From: Escherichia phage vB_EcoM_DE17
Sequence record: OP595146.1
Reading direction: 5' to 3' (one strand)
Length of the DNA stretch: 64,000 nucleotides
The notes below the pieces were generated by a model. The model did not search any database and was not told the DNA's origin. It worked only from the letters and a program-made list of their open reading frames with translations. Below are positions 32,881 to 47,376 of the stretch, one piece after another. Both the position numbers and the translations under genes were made by a program. Positions within the stretch are counted from its first letter, which is position 1, and every line of letters starts with the position of its first letter.

Positions 32881-33396
32881 ATGATTGATGTCTACTTACA
32901 AGATGCTCATGCAGATTTCCTTAAAGTGATGCTTAAAAAGTTTATGGCTTCACAGTGTGAGAATGAAGCATCTTTTAAAATAGTTACATGTGGCGATGAA
33001 GCTGGTTTTGTTGAGATTGAACATGAAGGTACTGGAAAGATTGTTTGTAAGTTACCTGATAGTATGTTCTCTAACACATTCTTAACAAAGACTAGTATAA
33101 ATGTTAAGCTTGTACCTCAGATTGAAACATACTCTGGTACAGATTACCCTAAAGGTTTTAAGTCACTGATGAAGTACTTCTTAGATGACTTTGTGAGTAA
33201 TCTTCTGAGAGAGGTAAAAGAAAGTCGTACAGTGTTGACTGTAGAGAACATGGGAGGAACTATCAGGGTTACTTCTGACTGTTTTGTTATGAGCCTCTTC
33301 GACTTCGTTCCTAAGAACTTTGATGGTATTCTGGATGAAGAAGATGACTGTGTAGATTTTATATTGGTTCTTGAACCAGTTTTTGAGGTTAAATAA
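32881..33396 (+). CDS. hypothetical protein
   Basis: 171-aa ORF. Confidence 0.5.
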   Translation: MIDVYLQDAHADFLKVMLKKFMASQCENEASFKIVTCGDEAGFVEIEHEGTGKIVCKLPDSMFSNTFLTKTSINVKLVPQIETYSGTDYPKGFKSLMKYFLDDFVSNLLREVKESRTVLTVENMGGTIRVTSDCFVMSLFDFVPKNFDGILDEEDDCVDFILVLEPVFEVK

Positions 33397-33657
33397 ATGA
33401 AAATTGAACACTGCTATGAGTCTGACGGAGCACCTATCCGTTGTCCACATTGTGGATGCACAGACTTACAAGGTGAGGTAAGTGAAATAGTCAACGGTCA
33501 TATTGCTGAAGAGAGTACAAGGTGTACAGGGTGTAGTGAAGTTATTGCTTTCTGGGCTTATGGTTCATACCAGCCTACGCCACACTTAATCTACCATAGC
33601 AATAAAGCTGTGAAGAATGTTATCAACTGGTTCATTAAGAAAGGGTTTACAAAATGA
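33397..33657 (+). CDS. zinc-ribbon protein
   Basis: CPHCGC ... CTGC Cys4 pattern. Confidence 0.5.
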   Translation: MKIEHCYESDGAPIRCPHCGCTDLQGEVSEIVNGHIAEESTRCTGCSEVIAFWAYGSYQPTPHLIYHSNKAVKNVINWFIKKGFTK

Positions 33658-34199
33658 TTAAATTAATCTTTGCAAGTGGTGAAAATGGTGAGTTTGGTAC
33701 TCCAACTGGTATGCCGTGGCCTCGACATAAACAGGACATGCAAGAGTTTAAGAGACTCACTAAAAACAACTTAGTAGTGATGGGTAATGAGACTTTCAAG
33801 ACTCTGGGGAGTAAACCTTTACCAGAACGTGCAAACCTAATCTTAACAAATTCTGTACCATACTTAGGCATAGACTTTGGCAAAGATGAGGTAATGTATG
33901 CTAAGGCCAGCAAAGAATCCTTTGGAGCATTTTTGAACTATCTTGATAGCTCTATTGATGAAGATGTCTTTGTAATTGGTGGTGCAGGTGTCCTTGTCAA
34001 TGCTTTACCATATGCTGGTGTAGTTTTCCATACAGTTTTCCATAAAGTTACTGAAGAGGCCACTGTGTATTTACCTTTTGAAAACTTTTTTGAGAAGTTG
34101 TATGATAACCGTGTATTTACAAAGGTACAGTCAAAACCATCAGAGGATGGTAAAGCAACCTTTGAAATTTATGTTCCACAAGTAAAAGGGCACTTTTGA
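33654..34199 (+). CDS. folA: dihydrofolate reductase
   Basis: N-terminal IFASGENGEFG...MPWP and overall DHFR pattern; immediately upstream of thymidylate synthase. Confidence 0.8.
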   Translation: MIKLIFASGENGEFGTPTGMPWPRHKQDMQEFKRLTKNNLVVMGNETFKTLGSKPLPERANLILTNSVPYLGIDFGKDEVMYAKASKESFGAFLNYLDSSIDEDVFVIGGAGVLVNALPYAGVVFHTVFHKVTEEATVYLPFENFFEKLYDNRVFTKVQSKPSEDGKATFEIYVPQVKGHF

Positions 34200-34200
34200 T

Positions 34201-35100
34201 ATGTCACAAGCAGATACAAGTTACAAAAATATCCTGAACCATGTTTTATCAGTTGGTGAACTGCGTACTACACGAACTGGAGATGTTATCTCTGCTTTTG
34301 CTCCACCTCAGTTTCGATTTGATATGCGAACTGGTTTCCCGCTCTTAACATCTAAACAGGTGTTTACACGGCAAGTTATCGGGGAAGCTTTATGGTTCCT
34401 GAATGGTGAGAATAAGCTGGGTGAACTCCGTTACCGCACTTGGGGTGAAAATGATGGGGAACGCTGGACTATCTGGTCAGATGATTTTAAACGCTGGTTA
34501 AGCTCTAATTATTCTTCTGAACAAGATTGGTTAGAGGATGCAGGTGGAAGAATCTATGGGGTGCAGTGGAGAAACTTTGAAGGTCATAACGGTTGTGTTG
34601 TAGACCAGTTAGAGACCTTAGTAACGAAGATGAAGGGTGATATCACAGACCGTTACATGCTTGTTAATGCTTGGAATGCAGCAGATATTGCAGCAAACTC
34701 AATGGCTTTAGCACCTTGTCATGTTCTGTTTCAGATTTATATCACTAATGAGGGTGAAGTTGACTTACAATGGTATCAGCGTTCAGTGGACACCTTCTTA
34801 GGACTTCCGTTTAATATTGCATCTTACGGTTTTATTCTGGAAGTTCTTTGTAAGATGACTGGATACACTCCACGGTACTTGATAGGTGTCTTTGGAGATA
34901 CTCAGATTTATCAGAACCATATGAAGCAGGTTTATGAACTGATGAACAATGAAGAGTTCCATGCACCAACTTTTGAGATTGGTATCCCACTTAACACTTT
35001 AAGTGACTTAAAACATCTTACAGCAAGTGATTTTATTGGTGGGATTAATAACTACCAACATGCAGGTAAGATTGAAGCACCTCTGTCAGTAGGCAAGTAA
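34201..35100 (+). CDS. thyA: thymidylate synthase
   Basis: ThyA signatures including catalytic-Cys region ALAPCHVLFQ; uninterrupted, no intron. Confidence 0.9.
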   Translation: MSQADTSYKNILNHVLSVGELRTTRTGDVISAFAPPQFRFDMRTGFPLLTSKQVFTRQVIGEALWFLNGENKLGELRYRTWGENDGERWTIWSDDFKRWLSSNYSSEQDWLEDAGGRIYGVQWRNFEGHNGCVVDQLETLVTKMKGDITDRYMLVNAWNAADIAANSMALAPCHVLFQIYITNEGEVDLQWYQRSVDTFLGLPFNIASYGFILEVLCKMTGYTPRYLIGVFGDTQIYQNHMKQVYELMNNEEFHAPTFEIGIPLNTLSDLKHLTASDFIGGINNYQHAGKIEAPLSVGK

Positions 35101-35109
35101 AACAAAAAA

Positions 35110-35129
35110 GGCTCCCGTAAAAAGGAGCC
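35110..35129. terminator. bidirectional intrinsic terminator at convergent gene junction
   Basis: GGCTCC-cgtaaaaa-GGAGCC flanked by an A-run on one side and a T-run on the other, so U-tracts on both strands; between thyA (+) and the membrane coiled-coil gene (-). Confidence 0.65.
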
Positions 35130-35136
35130 TTAAATT

Positions 35137-35508
35137 TTATTTTTCAGTATTCTTTGTGTTCTTTTCAGTAATAGCTTGCAAGGCTGATACTGATTGAGCC
35201 AGATTGTTCACACTGTCAGAGAATTTATCAAGAGTCTTAGTAAGTTTTGCATTCTCACCCTTAACATTCTCTAACTGAACTTTCTGGTTCTCCATCCCTA
35301 GCTGAATCAGTCTCATGTCAGACTGTAAATCACGAATAGCTGAGTAATTACTTTTGGAATAATTATCTAACTGCTGTAACTTTGTTGTGACAGAAACTTC
35401 TTGTTTACCACTTGAAACTTGCATGGTGGTATACATCCCAATAACACTAAAAATACCAACTACAATTGCACCAATATTATTTTTAAAAGCTTCCTCTAGC
35501 CACTTCAT
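35137..35508 (-). CDS. membrane-anchored coiled-coil protein (i-spanin-like architecture)
   Basis: N-terminal TM helix then about 90 aa of coiled-coil-like sequence. Confidence 0.5.
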   Translation of the reverse strand: MKWLEEAFKNNIGAIVVGIFSVIGMYTTMQVSSGKQEVSVTTKLQQLDNYSKSNYSAIRDLQSDMRLIQLGMENQKVQLENVKGENAKLTKTLDKFSDSVNNLAQSVSALQAITEKNTKNTEK

Positions 35509-35702
35509 TTATTCTCCCCCTTAAAAGCTTTTTCTAAGTTATCTACGAACTCATCATCAATAGGTGTGTCTGTTTTACTCGCAAGATATCTTGCAAGCTT
35601 AAAGAACACTTTCTCAATCATGTATTCACTTAGAAGGGATAAAATGAGTTTCCAGAAGAAGCTACCTAGATTTTTTAGAAGAATTGCTAGGATTGTAGGC
35701 AT
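35505..35702 (-). CDS. small membrane protein
   Basis: 65 aa with N-terminal hydrophobic helix. Confidence 0.45.
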   Translation of the reverse strand: MPTILAILLKNLGSFFWKLILSLLSEYMIEKVFFKLARYLASKTDTPIDDEFVDNLEKAFKGENK

Positions 35703-35781
35703 TTAATCACCTCATCAGCCAAGATGGTGAGAATACCCATAAAGAATATTAACACCATCTTAACAATCAGTCAACAAGTGA

Positions 35782-38139
35782 TTAAGCAGTTCTTACCCAA
35801 GCCATTAACTTGTAGAACTGGTTTGTAACACTAAATGCTGAACCAGAACCAGTACCACCTGTGTTACCGCTAACTGTGTGGCTGTGAGCACCAATACCAA
35901 CAGTGTGGCTGTGGTTACCTGTTGTATTCGTTACACCAGACCAAGTTCTTGACGCATTAAAGTTAGCAGGGATACCATAAGTGAAGTTAGAGCCAGTAAA
36001 ACCCTTAGAAGCAGTTGAGCTACCAAGTGTAAATGCACCACTTGCTGTGTAGAAGCTGCTAGAGTCACTTCTAAAGTAACCTACTGTACCAGTAATCTCC
36101 ATAGTACCTCTGTTATGGTTATGGTTACCAGTTGTGCTAGAAGTCTTAGTGCCATAATCAAATGATGAAGTGGTAGCAGAGAAGCTATGCGTGTGTGAAG
36201 GTAAGTTGCCAACAGATAACGTTACAGAGTCTGAACCACCAGTTGTAGCAACATCTGAGCCATTTGCTGCTGCAATTCGGATAGTTCTACCAACACCATT
36301 GTTCAGGTACGTCCAAGTTAGACCAGGAAGTGCTGTATTAGGGTTAACATTGCTGTTAAACCATGTCACAATACCCACTGGGTAGATTTTATTCAGGTCT
36401 GTAGAGTCACTTACTGCTTCTGCAATTCTCTGGTCAGTTTCAGCTTTAGTATATGCACCAATTTCTGAAGGGGTTGGTTTCTGAGCTTCAGTGTAAACCT
36501 TAGACCATTCAGCCTCAAAACCAGACCTATCTCTGGCTGTTCTATACCACATCCCACCATTTCTATAATCAAACCTTAATTGCGCAGTTGGTGTTGATGC
36601 TAACATATTAGCGAATAGGTGTAAGACTAAACGGCTTGAACCACCACCCTTGATAGTCTCTACATAAATTCCTGAAGGTTGGTTCCAAGCCACACCACCA
36701 TCAGACTCCTCCACCAAAGCTCTGGCTGATGACCATAAGTACTTTGCATCGGTTGCAGATTTAACGTAGTATCTAGCATCTAAGTTAGAGAAATCCGAAG
36801 GTTGAACTTGACCCGTGATTGCTAAAGTTGCATTCATTTCAAATACTGAACCAATGCTAAGCCCTTTACCTGTCTTGTAGTTAAACACATTTAAGATATC
36901 ACTGGCATCACCATTACCAATATACCACTTGCTGGTTCCATCAACAGCCTTTCCCCTAATGAATAAGGACGTTGCAGTTTTTGCTCGTAACGCGAGAGCT
37001 TCTCCATCAGAGTTGATAACCTGTTGTGCAGAGAATGTATTAGCAGCATTAGTTCTTGCAATCGTACTTAATGTTGCTGCCGGAATATATCTAGAGTCAA
37101 TATTAGCCCAATCTGAAGGTTGGACTTGTCCAGTGATTTGCACAGTCTTATTGATACCAATAGTAGTACCTAGTGAAATCTGTGAACCTGTAAGGTAGTT
37201 ATAAATGTTTAGACGTGTCTCGTCAGAATCTGTACCAACATACCATTTATTTGTTCCATCAGACTTCTTACCGAGAATGTAAAGTGCTGTACTTGCATCA
37301 GTATTCTGTAAAGTAATAGCATTAGCATTCTTCTTAGCAACAAGGTTAGTGAAAGTGTTAGCACCTGTAAAAGTATTATTGCCAGCTAACTGTGCAAATC
37401 TCTGATTAGCAACTGTCTGAGTAAAGTATCTGGCATCTAAGTTAGAGAAATCTGAAGGTTGAACTTGACCAGTGATTCTAAGTGACTTGTTAAATGCTGC
37501 TGTTGCATCAAGGGTTAACATTGCACCAGTAGCATGATTGTACAAATAAACATTAGTACTATTTGCATTTCCCTGTCCAACATACCAAGTTTGCTGGTTA
37601 TTAGCATCTCTACCTTGAATATATGAAGCACCTGCATTGGTTGCCTTCTTAAGAGTTAACTGCTCACCATCAGTTACAATTGCTTGCCTGATACTGAAGT
37701 TATTTGTAACAGCAATCCTTGCATATCTTGCATCATTCTCTTCATTAGTTCTCATACCAAGCTCATTAGGGCTTGGTTTATTCAAAGTATGATAAACAGT
37801 TGCCGACCTTGTGGCATCTGCAATAGTGAGTTTAAGCCCATTTGAGTTAATTTTAAAAGTCTTTAAAATATCCCCAATAGTAATCTCAGAAGAGCCTGTT
37901 GGGTCAAATACTGCCTTACCACCGTAAAGTAACTTGACAATACCTAAATCCCCAACCATAGTACTCCCAGCAATCTGAACAAACCTTTCTAGTTTGAAGG
38001 AAGCTAAGAAGTCTTGATAGGTCATTCTACGGTCTTCGTCACCCAACATTTCAGGTCTTTTCTTAACTCTGATGTGCAATAGGTCTTCTGAACGAATTGT
38101 GTCGATTGAGTTTAATTGACTCAATTTGTAATCTGCCAT
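35782..38139 (-). CDS. tail fibre protein with His-x-His-rich C-terminal tip
   Basis: 785 aa; three internal repeats each ending ITGQVQPSD(F/W)xN(L/I)D(A/S)RY; C-terminus with HTHS, NHNHN, GNHSHTVGIGAHSHTV. Confidence 0.8.
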   Translation of the reverse strand: MADYKLSQLNSIDTIRSEDLLHIRVKKRPEMLGDEDRRMTYQDFLASFKLERFVQIAGSTMVGDLGIVKLLYGGKAVFDPTGSSEITIGDILKTFKINSNGLKLTIADATRSATVYHTLNKPSPNELGMRTNEENDARYARIAVTNNFSIRQAIVTDGEQLTLKKATNAGASYIQGRDANNQQTWYVGQGNANSTNVYLYNHATGAMLTLDATAAFNKSLRITGQVQPSDFSNLDARYFTQTVANQRFAQLAGNNTFTGANTFTNLVAKKNANAITLQNTDASTALYILGKKSDGTNKWYVGTDSDETRLNIYNYLTGSQISLGTTIGINKTVQITGQVQPSDWANIDSRYIPAATLSTIARTNAANTFSAQQVINSDGEALALRAKTATSLFIRGKAVDGTSKWYIGNGDASDILNVFNYKTGKGLSIGSVFEMNATLAITGQVQPSDFSNLDARYYVKSATDAKYLWSSARALVEESDGGVAWNQPSGIYVETIKGGGSSRLVLHLFANMLASTPTAQLRFDYRNGGMWYRTARDRSGFEAEWSKVYTEAQKPTPSEIGAYTKAETDQRIAEAVSDSTDLNKIYPVGIVTWFNSNVNPNTALPGLTWTYLNNGVGRTIRIAAANGSDVATTGGSDSVTLSVGNLPSHTHSFSATTSSFDYGTKTSSTTGNHNHNRGTMEITGTVGYFRSDSSSFYTASGAFTLGSSTASKGFTGSNFTYGIPANFNASRTWSGVTNTTGNHSHTVGIGAHSHTVSGNTGGTGSGSAFSVTNQFYKLMAWVRTA
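36771..37490 (-). repeat. three tandem about-340-bp repeat units inside the long tail-fibre gene
   Basis: Near-identical DNA segments at about 36771, 37091 and 37431 (tct.gcatctaagttagagaaatc.gaaggttgaacttgacc.gtgatt), each encoding ITGQVQPSDxxNxDxRY. Confidence 0.6.
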
Positions 38140-38159
38140 TATAAATTTTCCTCTTAAAA

Positions 38160-38175
38160 GGGGCTACAAAGCCCC
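38160..38175 (-). terminator. hairpin between the two tail-fibre genes
   Basis: GGGGC-tttgta-GCCCC followed on minus strand by TTTTAAGAGG then the RBS of the downstream fibre gene. Confidence 0.45.
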
Positions 38176-38185
38176 TGTAAAGAAA

Positions 38186-39361
38186 TTAAGCTGTTCTCTG
38201 CCACACATATACTACAAAAGATGGCTGCTCAACACTGAAAGCTTGACCACCACCAACAGAACCAGATGTCCCTGAGTGTGTATGCTCAGAGCTAGAAACA
38301 GTAACAGTGCCCGTATGACTGTGTGAACCAATATTGACAGTGTGGCTGTGAGCACCAATTGCAACAGTATGACTATGAGCACCAGATGATGCAGTTGTAC
38401 CTGAGAAGCTATGGGTGTGAGCACCAGCTAAGTCAGTATATGAAGCATTACCAACCCCAGCATCAGCAGATGCGGTAATAGCATTTGACCCACTTCTATC
38501 ATTACCCCTCAGAGGTACTCTATGGTTGTGGTTACCAGCATTACTTGTCGTTCCACTAAATGTGTGGGTGTGAGCACCAGCACTGTTAGTTGCCTTCGTA
38601 CCGTAGTCAAAAGTTGATGTACTCTTTGAACCATAATCAAAACTAGAGATAGATACACTTGCAGAGTGTGTATGACCACCCCCTGTTAGATAGATAGAGT
38701 GAGTATGTGCTGGTAAATTGTTATTTGTCAATACTACAGTCTGAGAACCAAAAGTTGAACCAACAGGTCTAGAATCTGTATCATAACCAACCAGTGCTCT
38801 ACCTTTAGAAACTAACTCCCAAGTACCTCCACAAAGCAAGTAAGTGGATGGGTTGGCAGAGTTAACAGATAGGTGAATAGTCCCTACTGGATATGATGCT
38901 TGAATAGCTTTGTATAAATTATTCACTGCTCTCGCGGTAGCGTACTTATCAGCATCTTCATTGTACAGATTAGATGTTGTCCAGTTCTGAACATTACTTA
39001 AACCTACCTGTGCTTTCGTTGTATTGTGTGGGTTACTTTTGTCGTCAATATGTTGCTGAATTGAGTTATTCACTTCTTCTGACGACATAATTTGTAGATT
39101 TGCTCTTGCCTCAGCAACATTCACAATGTCTGACAAGTTATTGGCTGCAACTAATTGGAGAGAGTTAATAACATTATCAAGACCCACTTGTGATTTAGTT
39201 ACACCATGAGGATTATTCCTCAGAGATGCGTGAGGTGCTAACAACTGTTCAAGCGTACATCTTTTATCCTCAACACCTTGCTTAAGGTGGAAGATATCAC
39301 TTAAATCAACTGGTAAGGCCGCTTGTGGCAAGGCACTAATTTGAATTTCACCTACTGCCAT
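38186..39361 (-). CDS. tail fibre protein 2 with His-x-His-rich C-terminal tip
   Basis: 391 aa; repeated AHTHS/GAHSHTV/GSHSHTG motifs; C-terminal ~20 aa resemble those of 35782..38139. Confidence 0.8.
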   Translation of the reverse strand: MAVGEIQISALPQAALPVDLSDIFHLKQGVEDKRCTLEQLLAPHASLRNNPHGVTKSQVGLDNVINSLQLVAANNLSDIVNVAEARANLQIMSSEEVNNSIQQHIDDKSNPHNTTKAQVGLSNVQNWTTSNLYNEDADKYATARAVNNLYKAIQASYPVGTIHLSVNSANPSTYLLCGGTWELVSKGRALVGYDTDSRPVGSTFGSQTVVLTNNNLPAHTHSIYLTGGGHTHSASVSISSFDYGSKSTSTFDYGTKATNSAGAHTHTFSGTTSNAGNHNHRVPLRGNDRSGSNAITASADAGVGNASYTDLAGAHTHSFSGTTASSGAHSHTVAIGAHSHTVNIGSHSHTGTVTVSSSEHTHSGTSGSVGGGQAFSVEQPSFVVYVWQRTA

Positions 39362-39363
39362 TA

Positions 39364-39666
39364 TTAAGCTCCTACATATTCATATGTGTAAAGGTTTCCT
39401 GTACTTGTTGATGCAGTCCCTGTCTCAGATTTAATCAGATTCCAGCCATTAGCCACTAAATCTGGTTGCTCAGTTGCATATGAGCGAACTTCACCAACAG
39501 TGCCGTTTACTTTATTAAGCAGGTAGTTGATAATATAGTTGAACCACTGCCTACCCATAGGTTCACCCTTTAAAAGACCTGTCTCTTGAACTTCCGGTGG
39601 TGGTAAAACTTTTAACTGGTTACCATCAGTATCTACTTCATTTGTAGACCAATTTAAAACTGCCAT
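39364..39666 (-). CDS. hypothetical tail-associated protein
   Basis: 100 aa between baseplate and fibre genes. Confidence 0.45.
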
Positions 39667-40520
39667 TAAGAATTTCCTTCTTGTTGTGATTTATCTTTTC
39701 TGCCTTTGACAATTTGTGCAACCTCAGCCATGATTCCATATGCACCACCTGCAATAGCTTCTTTACCAACGATGAAATAGCCACTATTATTGGACCTATC
39801 TACAGTCATATAATCATCACTCTGTGAGTTTGCTGTTCTGTCAACCCTAAAGTAACCATCAATAACACCAGCATCTGCAAGACTACCTACTAAGTTGGAT
39901 TCCAGAGAGCCACCAGTGTTATTTGTGACAAGACCTCTGTTAGCATCAGTTACAAACCAGTTCTCTTTATCATCAACAATAGCAAGTGATGAATCAGCAA
40001 CCTCTACAGGAGTCCAAGCAGTTCCATTTAAAGTAACATCTCTTAAGATGACAGCGGAGCCAGTAGTTGTTGCAGAAATCTTTGACAATGTATATGCAGC
40101 ATCTAGAACGCTTTTTCTAGTGTTGATACGGATAACGATACCACCAGTCTTAGGAGTAATATGCTCAAAAATCTGAGAGAAAGTTGCACCATATAGCGTC
40201 ATAATTGCTTTTTGCAAGAATGTTGGGGTGGTGTCAGAGCGTCTTAGGAAGATTTGGATATAAAGCATAGCCCTATATGTTTCATCATCTGCACCTAAAG
40301 GTCTAGGAACTTTAATCAGTGAGCCAATGTTATCAAGTTGTTGGCCTACTGACGTCCTGATATTTCTCTCTGTGTGCATCTGCCAGCAAACATCCTCTAG
40401 AGTTTGTAATTCATCAGTGATTGCTTTCAAGATACTTGTATAGATAAATTTATCTTTAAACTGTGTTACAGTCCTTTCATCAAGTGTTTTGTAATAAACA
40501 CTATCAATCTTTTCAAACAT
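39666..40520 (-). CDS. putative baseplate/tail-fibre attachment protein
   Basis: Position between J-like baseplate gene and fibres; no motif confirmed. Confidence 0.45.
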
Positions 40521-40522
40521 TA

Positions 40523-41991
40523 TTACTCCTTAGTGATGGTATACTGGCTGCTTTCCCAAACAGTATATTGGTCACCGTCAACAGTAATTCTTGCTGTAGT
40601 ATACTGCCCGTCACTAGGTGGGACTGATTGACTGTTTGATAAGGCTACTTTAACCTCATTAATCTCAATACCTTTAATTACGTCATAGATATATCCATAG
40701 ATTCTGTTAGGGATAACATCATTACCAACCTTAAGAGTTCTCCCATAAGCATTAATACCTTGTACAATGCTGTCTCTGATATCCTCTTCAGGGATTGTCA
40801 AGCTTTCTTCATCATATAAAGAGTAAGAGACTTTAACAAATGCGTATTTTGGTGTTGGTCTGCTAAAATAAATATTATGTGCCAAACCACCTAAATCATG
40901 GGCTGTACCAAAAATTGAGCCATAAGCCCTAATACCAGCAGGTTTTGTATCCCAGATTGCTTGAGCAACATTATCATTTTGACCACCAACTACAACAATC
41001 TTAAAAGATTTTGGTGGAAGACCTTCTGAGCTTGTCTCTTCAGTATCATTCTCAACACCTGAAGCATCTGAGACACCTTGAACTCTTTTAACAGCAGCTA
41101 CAATTGCATCCAAAGTCCCTACACCAGTAACTGCTAAAGATTCTAAATATCTCTGTCTAAGTTCTGTGTCAGTTTCTTCGTTTCTACCAGTTGTTAAGTC
41201 ATACCTGTTATAAATACTGTCAAGACCATCAACAGTTGTCTCAATCTCAATAAGCGTACCAGCCAAAGCAGGGGTAGCACCAACCTCTTCAGCTACTACA
41301 TCTGAAATAGTTGTAATTTTTGTAAAGGTCAGAAATGTTGTTGCAGTGACAACCATAGGGTTTGTTCTTGCAATGATATCACCCTCTTCTTTATAGACTC
41401 TTAGTGAGGCTCCATCATTAATGACTTCTGCTTTTGCTACAATACCACCATTAATAGCTTCTGCTAATTTTGTTAGAAGCGTGGTGATTGTGTCTGATGA
41501 GGTTGGTTTATATGAGAAAATGACGTTATCAATAATAATAACATAATCTGCATCAGTTCGTAAAGAGTTAACTTCAAGGATAGCTTCAACACAATATGAT
41601 GGAGTAAGGGTAATATTATTAACTGGATAAAAGATGTTTCCGGCAGTACTTCTTAATCTTGTTGTTGAAGGAATGGTAGCACCAGTCGTTCCAGTAAACT
41701 CAACTTGACCTCTTGTTGCCTGAGCAACATATCTGTATACCGCATTTAAAGCTGTAATATCATCAAGGTTAAAGCCTTCAGCCTTATCAATTGTACCCCC
41801 ATCGTAGATTTCTGATAGAATCTCATGAGTATCTGCTAAAGACCTTGCAATTGAAGCTAGGAAGAGTCCTAATTGGCTATCTTCAGAAACGTCAAGGTTG
41901 GGTGAAATATCTCTAAGAAGTCTTGATTTGATATTATCAAAAATCTCCTGATATCTTAGAGTTTGTAATCCTGTTGTAGTTAATCCTGCCA

Positions 41992-41992
<1 letters not shown>
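40523..41992 (-). CDS. putative baseplate J-like protein
   Basis: 489 aa; size and position in baseplate block; assignment by synteny. Confidence 0.5.

Positions 41993-47376
<5,384 letters not shown>

Follow-up and report, generated by a model that had tools for sequence, protein, structure and literature searches.

Two neighbouring, histidine-rich fibre genes of Escherichia phage vB_EcoM_DE17 raise the question of what kind of fibres they encode, and of whether variation in host range could come from their repeated shaft or from their tips. We addressed it in a window of 64,000 nucleotides (OP595146.1), that is, the whole stretch of DNA that was analysed. The reading that we favour, with a probability of about 0.88, is that DE17 carries the Felixounavirus fibre module, composed of a short tail fibre (STF) and a long tail fibre (LTF), with gp37-type tips, a shaft of three units fixed in number, and head replacement as the driver of host range. 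An earlier note on this DNA was largely correct in its observation, which is partly confirmed here; its interpretation is partly supported and is not new (PMC12609058; PMC3185647).

The fibre locus and its neighbourhood

Positions 35782-39361 of the window correspond to exactly two adjoining minus-strand ORFs of the ORF list, encoding proteins of 785 and 391 aa (Table 1). The larger one, LTF, is 100% identical to the deposited tail fibre of Escherichia phage vB_EcoM_DE17 and matches phrog_4277 (1342 bits), and the smaller one, STF, matches the tail fiber family phrog_2097 (E=3e-137). Both are homologous over their full length to fibre proteins of Bas63 (Escherichia phage JohannRWettstein), LTF to gp27 (65% identity, 785 aa) and STF to gp26 (75% identity, 391 aa). 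The surrounding backbone is that of a Felixounavirus, 95-98% identical to KEP1, D4 and EC6. Upstream of the fibre genes lie ORFs of 489, 284 and 100 aa, and downstream ORFs of 65 and 123 aa, thymidylate synthase and DHFR; the resulting order (wedge 2, wedge 1, LTF platform, STF, LTF, two small ORFs, thymidylate synthase, DHFR) is identical to that of Bas63 gp23-gp31. Judged by position and length, the 100-aa ORF appears to be the orthologue of Bas63 gp25, and we transfer to it the role of the Bas63 LTF platform, which is where LTF attaches to the baseplate (PMC12609058). These results show that the locus contains the usual pair of tail-fibre genes, one short and one long, of a Felix O1-like phage of E. 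coli, presumably expressed from the late baseplate operon.

Table 1. Positions in the window of the DE17 fibre genes, of a neighbouring gene and of the fibre parts
Feature	Position	Strand	Basis or remark
LTF gene, 785 aa	35782..38139	(-)	orthologue of Bas63 gp27 / Felix O1 gp77
LTF N-terminal baseplate-binding region (aa 1-117)	37789..38139	(-)	near-invariant in 43 homologues
LTF shaft repeat 1 (aa 118-230)	37450..37788	(-)	Pfam gp37_trimer best stretch aa 158-247
LTF shaft repeat 2 (aa 231-343)	37111..37449	(-)	one of three gp37_trimer stretches
LTF shaft repeat 3 (aa 344-449)	36793..37110	(-)	most variable of the three among homologues
LTF mid-shaft domain (aa 479-573)	36421..36705	(-)	phage Mu protein S / Pfam gp37_C-like
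LTF receptor-binding tip (aa 586-785): collar, short HxH needle, large head, return strand	35785..36384	(-)	STF paralogy, 2XGF
LTF distal head (aa 676-742), hypervariable; large-head, 4-HxH allele	35914..36114	(-)	homologue identity drop
STF gene, 391 aa	38186..39361	(-)	orthologue of Bas63 gp26 / Felix O1 gp76
STF receptor-binding tip (aa 146-391): collar, HxH needle, head, return strands	38189..38926	(-)	2XGF alignment, AF2 model
STF descending needle strand, 4 HxH (aa 219, 230, 264, 278)	38522..38707	(-)	both His in 49-62/66 homologues
STF distal head (aa 281-314), variable	38420..38521	(-)	consensus undefined over 66 homologues; pLDDT 40-49
STF ascending needle strand, 5 HxH (aa 315, 329, 338, 347, 360)	38276..38419	(-)	motif count, 2XGF alignment
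LTF-platform protein gene, 100 aa	39364..39666	(-)	ORF; phrog_4141 E=3e-60; position and length as bas63_0025

Such a two-fibre layout with gp37-like HxH (His-x-His) tips is already known, as it has been published from cryo-EM for Bas63, a close relative (Sci Adv 2025; PMC12609058), and gp52/gp53 of Shigella phage Sf14 have a domain organisation identical to that of the Bas63 fibres (PMC12609058). The gp37 likeness of the Felix O1 fibres has been on record since 2010: gp76 and gp77 of that phage are encoded by adjacent genes and resemble T4 gp37 at their C-termini, gp77 being a proven virion protein (PMC3185647). The Bas63 structure and the analogy with T4 suggest that LTF, held on a gp9-like platform, would probably make the first and reversible contact, with LPS, and that STF, held on the wedge, would probably bind after it. 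For Felix O1 relatives, host recognition is resolved only as far as LPS dependence, according to the BASEL paper (PMC8594841).

Histidine-rich tips of the gp37 type

The two fibres are, as the earlier note had claimed, densely populated with HxH motifs near their C-termini, with four in LTF (aa 649, 673, 743 and 752) and nine in STF. Shuffled sequences contain on average 0.18 (LTF) and 1.40 (STF) such motifs, and the observed counts are reached in 0/20,000 shuffles. The strings that it had quoted are found, AHTHS and GAHSHTV in STF and GAHSHTV and NHNHN in LTF, and the last residues are indeed alike (GSGSAFSVTNQFYKLMAWVRTA vs GGGQAFSVEQPSFVVYVWQRTA). That the two fibres are paralogous holds for the tip (LTF 586-785 vs STF 157-391, 32% identity, E=3e-18) but not beyond it.

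The proposed parallel with the iron needle of T4 gp37 is borne out. [quoted passage not shown] STF aa 146-362 align with residues 18-227 of its 242-residue chain (E=2.3e-27), and each of the seven HxH positions of T4 falls on an STF motif (230, 264, 278, 315, 329, 338 and 347), motifs 219 and 360 being extras, one at each end. These seven motifs of 2XGF coordinate seven irons (PMC12609058). A 9-aa (27-nt) HSHTVxIGx triplet is also common to T4 gp37 and to the ascending strand of STF, where Tandem Repeats Finder (TRF) reports a period of 27 and 2.7 copies at 38313-38384. LTF aa 643-764 match 2XGF weakly (E=6e-4), and the LTF tip matches gp37 of the T-even Mosigvirus vB_EcoM-ZQ3 with E=1e-39 and 66% identity. 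LTF keeps only four motifs, two descending and two ascending, against seven in T4, and is thus a shortened version. The collar-type domain of T4 gp10 (Pfam PF21939, Gp10_C) is found in STF, with 68.7 bits for a gathering cut-off of 27, whereas LTF, with 24.3 bits, stays under this cut-off.

Over 66 STF homologues, some with as little as 33% identity, the histidines are conserved as pairs: in six of the nine motifs, the first and the third position carry histidine equally often. H347 and H349 never vary, and conservation reaches 90% or more at H219, H278/280 and H315/317. In LTF, the motifs are invariant in 43/43 homologues. The AF2 monomer model of STF, of mediocre quality (mean pLDDT 70, head 40-49), contains a long antiparallel hairpin pairing 222-242 with 346-365, and its C-terminal strand 385-389 returns with a pLDDT of 85-88; when this model was compared to the PDB with Foldseek, no significant match was obtained (best E 0.085). 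The AF2 monomer of LTF is poor (mean pLDDT 50, tip <50).

Judged from their sequences, both tips are true homologues of the gp37 needle that binds iron in T4, sharing with it a collar, a needle, a head and a down-and-back chain path. STF and LTF would be homotrimers, in which each chain would run from the collar down a thin beta needle to a small distal, receptor-contacting head and then back up, bringing the last residues (…W-x-R-T-A) to the collar again. Each HxH motif could provide two histidines per chain, so that a single metal ion would be coordinated octahedrally by the three chains (Fe2+ in T4, where the gp37 motifs bind it). Up to nine metal sites are predicted for the needle of STF and four for that of LTF, which is shorter; the metals would hold the needle together like staples and would not bind the receptor. 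In Bas63, both fibres likewise terminate in gp37-like collar-needle-head tips, with seven and six reported HxH motifs instead of the nine (STF) and four (LTF) of DE17, and its metal sites are also deduced, because fibre density in the cryo-EM maps was too weak for side chains to be modelled (PMC12609058).

The DE17 fibres differ from that of T4 in being single short proteins (391 and 785 aa) placed directly on the baseplate, whereas the T4 fibre is kinked, made of four proteins and tipped by a 1026-aa one. T4 has moreover the tip chaperone gp38, of which no homologue was found by tblastn against the whole 64-kb window (best E=2.3), so that the assembly route may differ from that of T4. The query was the 183-aa ORF that follows the gp37 gene of ZQ3, at the place where T4 has gp38, and that was taken to be gp38 by its position and length. 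The 65- and 123-aa ORFs downstream of LTF have no informative family match, and none to a tail-fibre assembly or chaperone family.

Variable heads and mosaicism among relatives

Relatives differ in the distal head, which lies between conserved HxH boxes, in how many HxH layers they have, in the sequence of repeats 2-3 and in a mid-shaft domain. Over 43 homologues, mean identity to DE17 LTF is 0.49-0.51 in the head vs 0.96-1.0 in its flanks. Most LTFs have 4 or 6 HxH motifs, and full-length STFs mostly 9 (range 6-11). The DE17 LTF allele combines a shorter needle with a larger head than the 6-HxH alleles, its inner motifs being ~67 aa apart vs ~25-40 aa in four aligned 6-HxH alleles; the STF distal head differs from that of Bas63 gp26.

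LTF head type tracks host genus. Of the records that contain the DE17 head allele, 36 are from Escherichia, 20 from Shigella and 1 from Salmonella, whereas 79 Salmonella records are matched by the locus as a whole; this allele is thus almost absent from Salmonella phages, of which Felix O1 is one, and the three named Salmonella-phage LTFs that were checked have a 6-HxH tip. The two heads reassort independently among relatives, as their identities to DE17 show: ZX4221 has an STF head at 100% and an LTF head at 73%, D4 at 93% and 100%, and NBEco004 at 95% and 62%, respectively. The dual receptor specificity suggested by the earlier note is therefore plausible, in the sense that the two distinct tips could have separate specificities. 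We propose that host-range variation would result from replacement of the head between conserved HxH boxes, with a lesser contribution of allelic replacement in repeats 2-3 and in the mid-shaft domain.

One possibility, which we hold to be unlikely though worth keeping in mind, is that the main role of the HxH-coding segments, or an additional one, is played at the DNA level, as 'His boxes'. These would be short sequences, well conserved, that provide crossover points at which receptor-binding heads are swapped between fibres and between phage families, an idea that Tétart, Desplats and Krisch reportedly put forward in 1998 for gp37/gp38 of T-even phages. The hypervariability of the head between HxH segments that are invariant in 43 LTF homologues is in agreement with it, as is the mosaic likeness to gp37 of the Mosigvirus ZQ3 (QWY13297.1; JS09-type, Tevenvirinae): LTF aa 646-756, comprising the head and the adjoining HxH segments, are 66% identical to it, while the remainder of both proteins, including the Mosigvirus region N-terminal of the tip, is unrelated. 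HxH-coding DNA blocks of 37-52 nt (families D2-D4) are besides common to the LTF and STF genes, and in Felix O1, exact nucleotide repeats of 32-51 bp that encode such motifs occur in both gp76 and gp77 (PMC3185647). The blocks shared in the window are, however, short and only 61-84% identical, which makes them a poor substrate for homologous recombination, and the pairwise conservation of histidines in STF homologues as distant as 33% identity argues for a structural constraint independent of DNA exchange. Structural and DNA-exchange roles can nevertheless coexist.

It is improbable that STF does not bind a receptor and serves instead as a sheath-side brace or a gp12/gp10-like baseplate element, with HxH sites that bind zinc as the histidines of the T4 gp12 tip do. 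Its Gp10_C domain and PDB matches to T4 gp10 (up to E=3e-6) point in this direction, but only the collar (aa 140-239) resembles gp10; for the needle and head, the alignment to the gp37 tip is far stronger (E=2e-27). Although STF is folded up in the Bas63 virion, its head being tucked in between domains of the sheath, the Bas63 authors read it as a deployable receptor-binding fibre (PMC12609058). The variation of the STF head and its reassortment independently of the LTF head are moreover expected under host selection.

A shaft module in three copies

The N-terminal region of LTF corresponds in position to the baseplate-binding domain of Bas63 LTF (PMC12609058). It is followed by three protein units of 106-113 aa, with 37-43% pairwise amino-acid identity. 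Pfam PF20744 (gp37_trimer) is recognised in three stretches with 182.6 bits (gathering cut-off 21.7), and a profile of the units matches the pyramid domain of T7 gp17 over ~65 residues (4A0T/4A0U/7BOZ; E=3e-7). This domain is present in one copy in T7 gp17 vs three tandem copies in LTF, each unit matching it. Bas63 LTF also has repeated beta-rich shaft domains; five beta-helix repeat domains are described there, whereas three are recognisable as sequence repeats in DE17, and the authors liken the shaft region to the T4 gp34 rod, 5NXH (PMC12609058). PDB searches with LTF or with the unit profile gave no sequence match to gp34 (5NXH).

The triplicated module of about 340 bp described by the earlier note thus exists as three units of protein but not as a DNA-level repeat. 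The conserved block recurs with start-to-start spacings of 318 and 339 nt, nucleotide identity between units is 52-57% pairwise, and TRF makes no call at 36793-37788, even with a minimum score of 30. From these comparisons, the units are best described as copies of a trimeric shaft module that arose long ago and have since diverged; they would set fibre length, and their number is fixed at three.

The earlier note went further, considering the repeats as recombination-prone and as a route to host-range variation; that their copy number varies fibre length and host range is very improbable. Three tandem units are present, and the sole well-conserved junction block (53 nt, 94% identity, 36768-36820 vs 37425-37477) could in principle delete two of them. 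That the units are recombination-prone is nevertheless not supported, their DNA being too diverged, and the comparison of copy number across related phages gives exactly three in the best 120 LTF homologues (120/120, 70-100% identity). LTF lengths cluster at 774-796 aa. Only one class is longer (844-849 aa), and in KEP1 (P0033), the single member of it that was examined, the difference comes from a swapped mid-domain and not from an added repeat. Nor does the Bas63 paper report any variation in repeat number among the ICTV species of Felixounavirus (PMC12609058). In the fibre module that we propose, changes in repeat number would thus not be a source of host-range variation.

Of the two findings that the earlier note had announced as contrary to its view, one, an invariant repeat number, is what we observe, and the other is not, since the His-rich segments are not disordered filler. 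Even if the tips are compositionally biased and HMMER bias scores are high for these matches, we rejected the reading of these segments as chance low-complexity sequence (Gly/Ser/Thr/His-rich) without specific function, which has next to no chance of being right: the motif counts are never reached by shuffling, the motif positions are kept across 66 STF and 43 LTF homologues, and the motifs are in register with the seven iron-coordinating ones of 2XGF.

Finally, LTF aa 479-573 match phage Mu fibre protein S (PDB 8JU3, E=1.3e-22) and Pfam PF12604 (53.5 bits), the LTF counterpart being located mid-shaft, upstream of the gp37-type tip. In KEP1, a segment of ~137 aa with no detectable similarity takes the place of LTF aa 469-545, and this Mu S-like domain is thus exchangeable.

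The fibre locus and its published counterparts

The interval in which the earlier note had placed two tail fibres corresponds exactly, after ORF calling, to two neighbouring minus-strand genes, encoding a short tail fibre (STF, 391 aa) and a long tail fibre (LTF, 785 aa). The fibre genes are preceded on this strand by ORFs of 489 aa (Baseplate_J wedge), 284 aa (baseplate protein) and 100 aa (phrog_4141), the last being the counterpart of gp25, the gp9-like LTF platform of Bas63 (Escherichia phage JohannRWettstein, MZ501086), a relative studied by cryo-EM. Downstream are found two small ORFs, then thymidylate synthase and DHFR genes on the opposite strand. This gene order matches bas63_0023 to 0031, and STF and LTF are, over their full length, 75% and 65% identical to the short (gp26) and long (gp27) tail fibres of Bas63. 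LTF has the same sequence as the tail fibre deposited for Escherichia phage vB_EcoM_DE17 (100% identity). The Felixounavirus genomes KEP1, vB_EcoM_D4 and EC6 are 95-98% identical over a 20-kb stretch around the locus, and of all genomes KEP1 comes closest (98.3% over 20 kb). The number of sigma-70 promoter-like sites (18) shows no enrichment over the 12.3 ± 4.0 expected.

Features of the fibre locus (positions in the window)
Feature	Size or residues	Position	Strand	Remark
STF gene	391 aa	38186-39361	-	ORF call; next to LTF gene
LTF gene	785 aa	35782-38139	-	ORF call; next to STF gene
LTF unit 1	aa 118-230	37450-37788	-	ends ITGQVQPSD
LTF unit 2	aa 231-343	37111-37449	-	ends ITGQVQPSD
LTF unit 3	aa 344-449	36793-37110	-	ends ITGQVQPSD
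Junction block, two most similar copies	53 nt	36768-36820; 37425-37477		
LTF segment not aligned with KEP1	aa 469-545	36505-36735		overlaps Mu-S-like domain
LTF head with flanking HxH boxes	aa 646-756	35905-36195		
Two small ORFs	65 and 123 aa	35137-35702	-	follow LTF gene; 4-nt mutual overlap
Terminator-like hairpin		35108-35131		bidirectional

The Felix O1 genome paper of 2010 already described that the C-termini of gp76 and gp77 both resemble T4 gp37 and that nucleotide repeats are common to both genes (PMC3185647). The Bas63 cryo-EM paper of 2025 describes two fibres with gp37-like collar-needle-head tips, counts their His-x-His (HxH) motifs, and also reports shaft domains present as repeats, tips that vary and a repeat number that does not, Sf14 gp52/gp53 being organised as in Bas63 (PMC12609058). 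The phage P293 paper (PMC13033461) and comparative Felixounavirus genomics (PMC8300805) treat fibre variability in general terms only. As these 2010 and 2025 papers and the GenBank LTF entry cover all the essentials of the fibre pair, we consider them already known, and our findings leave the current understanding of phage tail fibres unchanged. Their value is practical rather than conceptual, this locus being where Felix O1-like biocontrol phages encode host specificity.

The EC6 record (NC_027369; L001:4001-6371) splits the LTF orthologue into two CDSs that overlap, one named 'tail protein' and the other 'tail fiber protein', suggesting that this record carries either a frameshift or a sequencing error. 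Among the matches to the locus are also two records labelled 'Campylobacter' and one labelled 'Staphylococcus', and a Felixounavirus LTF of 73% identity (P0111) is deposited as 'UNVERIFIED_ORG: Staphylococcus phage SA1'; the records so labelled are probably mislabelled or contaminated.

Variable heads between invariant boxes

One variable part of LTF is the distal head between the inner HxH motifs: homologues are on average only about 0.5 identical to the window protein at aa 676-725, against 0.96-1.0 for the flanking boxes. The head is bounded by the invariant HxH boxes LPSHTHSF… and …HTVGIGAHSHTV, and repeats 2-3 of the shaft and the mid-shaft domain also vary among homologues. The number of HxH layers varies too: LTF has four in 82/120 homologues and six in 36/120, while full-length STF homologues mostly have nine (range 6-11). 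In the four-motif LTF allele of this phage the head is larger (about 67 aa), and the four six-motif alleles that were aligned combine a smaller head with a longer needle. The true units of variation are the distal heads enclosed by invariant HxH boxes, the count of HxH layers and the mid-shaft domain; the number of shaft repeats is constant.

The head of this LTF is of an E. coli/Shigella-associated type, common in phages of O157:H7 and other STEC. It occurs in 61 phage records; Escherichia accounts for 36 (many of these phages having been isolated using O157:H7 or another STEC), Shigella for 20, Citrobacter for 2 and Salmonella for just 1, whereas the whole locus is matched by 229 records, 79 of them from Salmonella phages. 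Together, the variable units and the head type suggest clean junctions for fibre engineering.

Outside the Felixounavirus relatives, LTF aa 646-756 strongly match the gp37 tip of the T-even Mosigvirus vB_EcoM-ZQ3 (L007:1310-4450; 66% identity, E=1e-39), the two proteins being unrelated outside this tip segment. Phage CJY920 (170 kb) also has a similar head, at 76% identity to that of LTF. At the level of sequence comparison, this distribution indicates that the receptor-binding head has been exchanged across phage families. In T-even phages, the DNA encoding HxH motifs has been viewed as a set of 'His boxes', at which crossovers exchange the heads. The HxH-coding DNA may also act as crossover boxes in the present fibres; both the T-even match and the position of a variable head between invariant boxes fit this view. 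The histidines are conserved pairwise at the protein level, which shows that there is structural constraint as well: among STF homologues (66, with identities as low as 33%), both His of a motif are gained or lost jointly, H347/H349 are invariant and several further His are at least 90% conserved, and all four HxH motifs are invariant among 43 LTF homologues.

The heads of the two fibres reassort among relatives. ZX4221 has an STF head identical to that of this phage (100%) and an LTF head at 73%; D4, I14.1 and E9 have an STF head at 93% and an LTF head at 100%; and an LTF head at 62% is found with an STF head at 95% in NBEco004 and at 93% in ECOH1 and Shigella phage Tf. This lends correlative support to the view that the phage has two binding surfaces that evolve separately; in this respect the dual receptor specificity proposed in the earlier note is sound. 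STF could alternatively be a purely structural, non-binding fibre, but this is unlikely because its head varies and reassorts. The authors of the Bas63 study propose that the first fibre to sample the surface is LTF and that STF acts like the T4 short fibres (PMC12609058), and the receptor of Felix O1 relatives is known only as LPS-dependent (PMC8594841).

An old triplication in the long fibre shaft

Three tandem repeats of about 340 bp, said to be visible at the DNA level and prone to recombination, had been put forward as a route to host-range variation. The three units are real as protein (37-43% pairwise identity), but the DNA wording was overstated: pairwise DNA identity is only 52-57%, Tandem Repeats Finder (33000-42000, minimum score 30) calls no array across them, reporting only the 27-nt HxH triplet of STF, and a repeat search finds just one conserved junction block. 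The triplication is therefore old. The 53-nt block, spaced by 318 and 339 nt, is 94% identical between its two most similar copies and 74% in the middle copy. It encodes …ITGQVQPSDFSNLDARY…, and the 94% identity is that between the end of repeat 1 and the end of repeat 3, the rest of the units being at about 55% DNA identity; either gene conversion or strong codon-level constraint at unit junctions may account for it.

A model in which recombination changes the copy number is contradicted both by the divergence of the units in DNA and by an HMM built on the three units, which finds exactly three copies in 120/120 of the best LTF homologues (70-100% identity). The variable repeat number expected by the earlier note is thus not borne out, in line with the Bas63 paper, where the variation within the ICTV species lies in sequence and not in repeat number (PMC12609058). 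Pfam assigns the units to PF20744 (gp37_trimer; 182.6 bits, three stretches), and a profile made from 20 diverse units matches the T7 gp17 pyramid domain (4A0T/4A0U/7BOZ, E=3e-7). The domain following the third unit (aa 479-573) resembles fibre protein S of phage Mu (8JU3, E=1.3e-22; Pfam gp37_C).

LTF lengths are comprised between 774 and 796 aa, save for one class of 844-849 aa. In KEP1 (P0033), the sole member of this class examined, with an LTF of 848 aa, the unaligned mid-shaft segment has as its counterpart about 137 aa without detectable similarity, while the N-terminus and the tip are still 97-100% identical (tip 97%).

Predicted metal-binding needles and tip assembly

Between them, the two proteins contain the strings AHTHS, GAHSHTV and NHNHN, and their C-termini are alike, as had been noticed from the sequence (last 22 residues, GSGSAFSVTNQFYKLMAWVRTA vs GGGQAFSVEQPSFVVYVWQRTA). 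Their paralogy holds for the tips (LTF 586-785 vs STF 157-391, 32% identity, E=3e-18) and not for the N-terminal parts, which are without significant similarity. LTF has 12 His, 8 of them inside four HxH motifs (aa 649, 673, 743, 752); STF has 24, with 18 inside nine motifs (aa 219, 230, 264, 278, 315, 329, 338, 347, 360).

The Fe2+-coordinating HxH needle of T4 was reportedly established by Bartual et al. in 2010. In T4, an HxH triad from three chains coordinates one Fe2+ within a six-stranded needle, and the chain reverses at a small distal head (PMC12609058). The likeness to this iron needle is confirmed by homology: the STF tip matches 2XGF, the T4 gp37 receptor-binding tip, with E=2.3e-27, the alignment covering residues 18-227 of a 242-residue construct, and all seven T4 HxH motifs align in register onto STF motifs 230-347. 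Each STF strand has one further layer at its collar end, formed by motifs 219 and 360. The 9-aa triplet GAHSHTVAI-GAHSHTVNI-GSHSHTGTV pairs unit for unit with that of T4. STF aa 140-239, just before the region of this triplet, match T4 gp10 in its C-terminal domain (E=3e-6; Pfam Gp10_C, 68.7 bits) and are the collar. The match of the LTF tip to 2XGF is weak (E=6e-4). By homology, up to nine metal sites would be expected in STF and four in LTF. That the HxH motifs merely reflect chance composition is excluded by the 2XGF alignment, by motif conservation among homologues and by shuffling, shuffled LTF and STF containing on average 0.18 and 1.40 motifs and reaching the observed count in 0/20,000 shuffles each.

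When the last 65 aa of STF are searched against the PDB, the 2XGF match ends ahead of the final strand; a match of the C-terminal motif to the 8KEC 'long tail fiber' is not significant (E=4.3). In the AF2 model of STF (mean pLDDT 70), segments 222-242 and 346-365 form a long hairpin, the head (285-306) is of low confidence and the C-terminal strand (385-389) returns to the well-predicted collar. That of LTF is poor (mean pLDDT 50, tip below 50), reaching 70-88 only in the three units and the next domain, which show beta-rich cores with short helices between. Such monomer models, the only ones predicted, are too poor for judging metal sites, as expected of obligate intertwined trimers. A Foldseek search of the STF model against the PDB gives nothing significant (best E 0.085, a gp10-like collar) and is uninformative, because the long hairpin spuriously draws pore-forming toxins.

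The only loose end seen is that no gp38-type chaperone is detected in the window, despite gp37-type tips on both fibres. In T-even fibres with the same head type, the gene is followed by a 183-aa ORF that is probably gp38, judging by position and length; tblastn with the ZQ3 ORF, presumed to be gp38 on the same grounds, finds no homologue in the 64 kb (best E=2.3). One speculative reading, to which we give about one chance in five, is that Felixounavirus fibres carry metal-stapled gp37-type tips assembling without a gp38-type chaperone, their heads still being exchanged with T-even phages that have a gene at the gp38 position. If so, fibres as short as these, each made of a single protein, would provide a minimal scaffold independent of any chaperone, onto which T-even heads could be transplanted at the HxH boxes, with a freely tunable needle length (4 to 11 HxH layers).

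As regards a chaperone, the only co-oriented neighbours of the fibre genes encode a pair of small proteins, of membrane or coiled-coil type. The 65-aa (phrog_402) and 123-aa (phrog_4038) products both have a hydrophobic N-terminus by eye, and the latter has coiled-coil-type Pfam hits and a weak Rz-like spanin match (E=0.009); beyond this coiled-coil noise and spanin match, Pfam and PHROGs return no tail-fibre assembly or chaperone family for either. They are candidates for lysis proteins or fibre-assembly helpers. They appear to be part of the fibre operon, since the only terminator-like hairpin on the minus strand lies past both of them, and they are conserved in Bas63 as gp28 and gp29.
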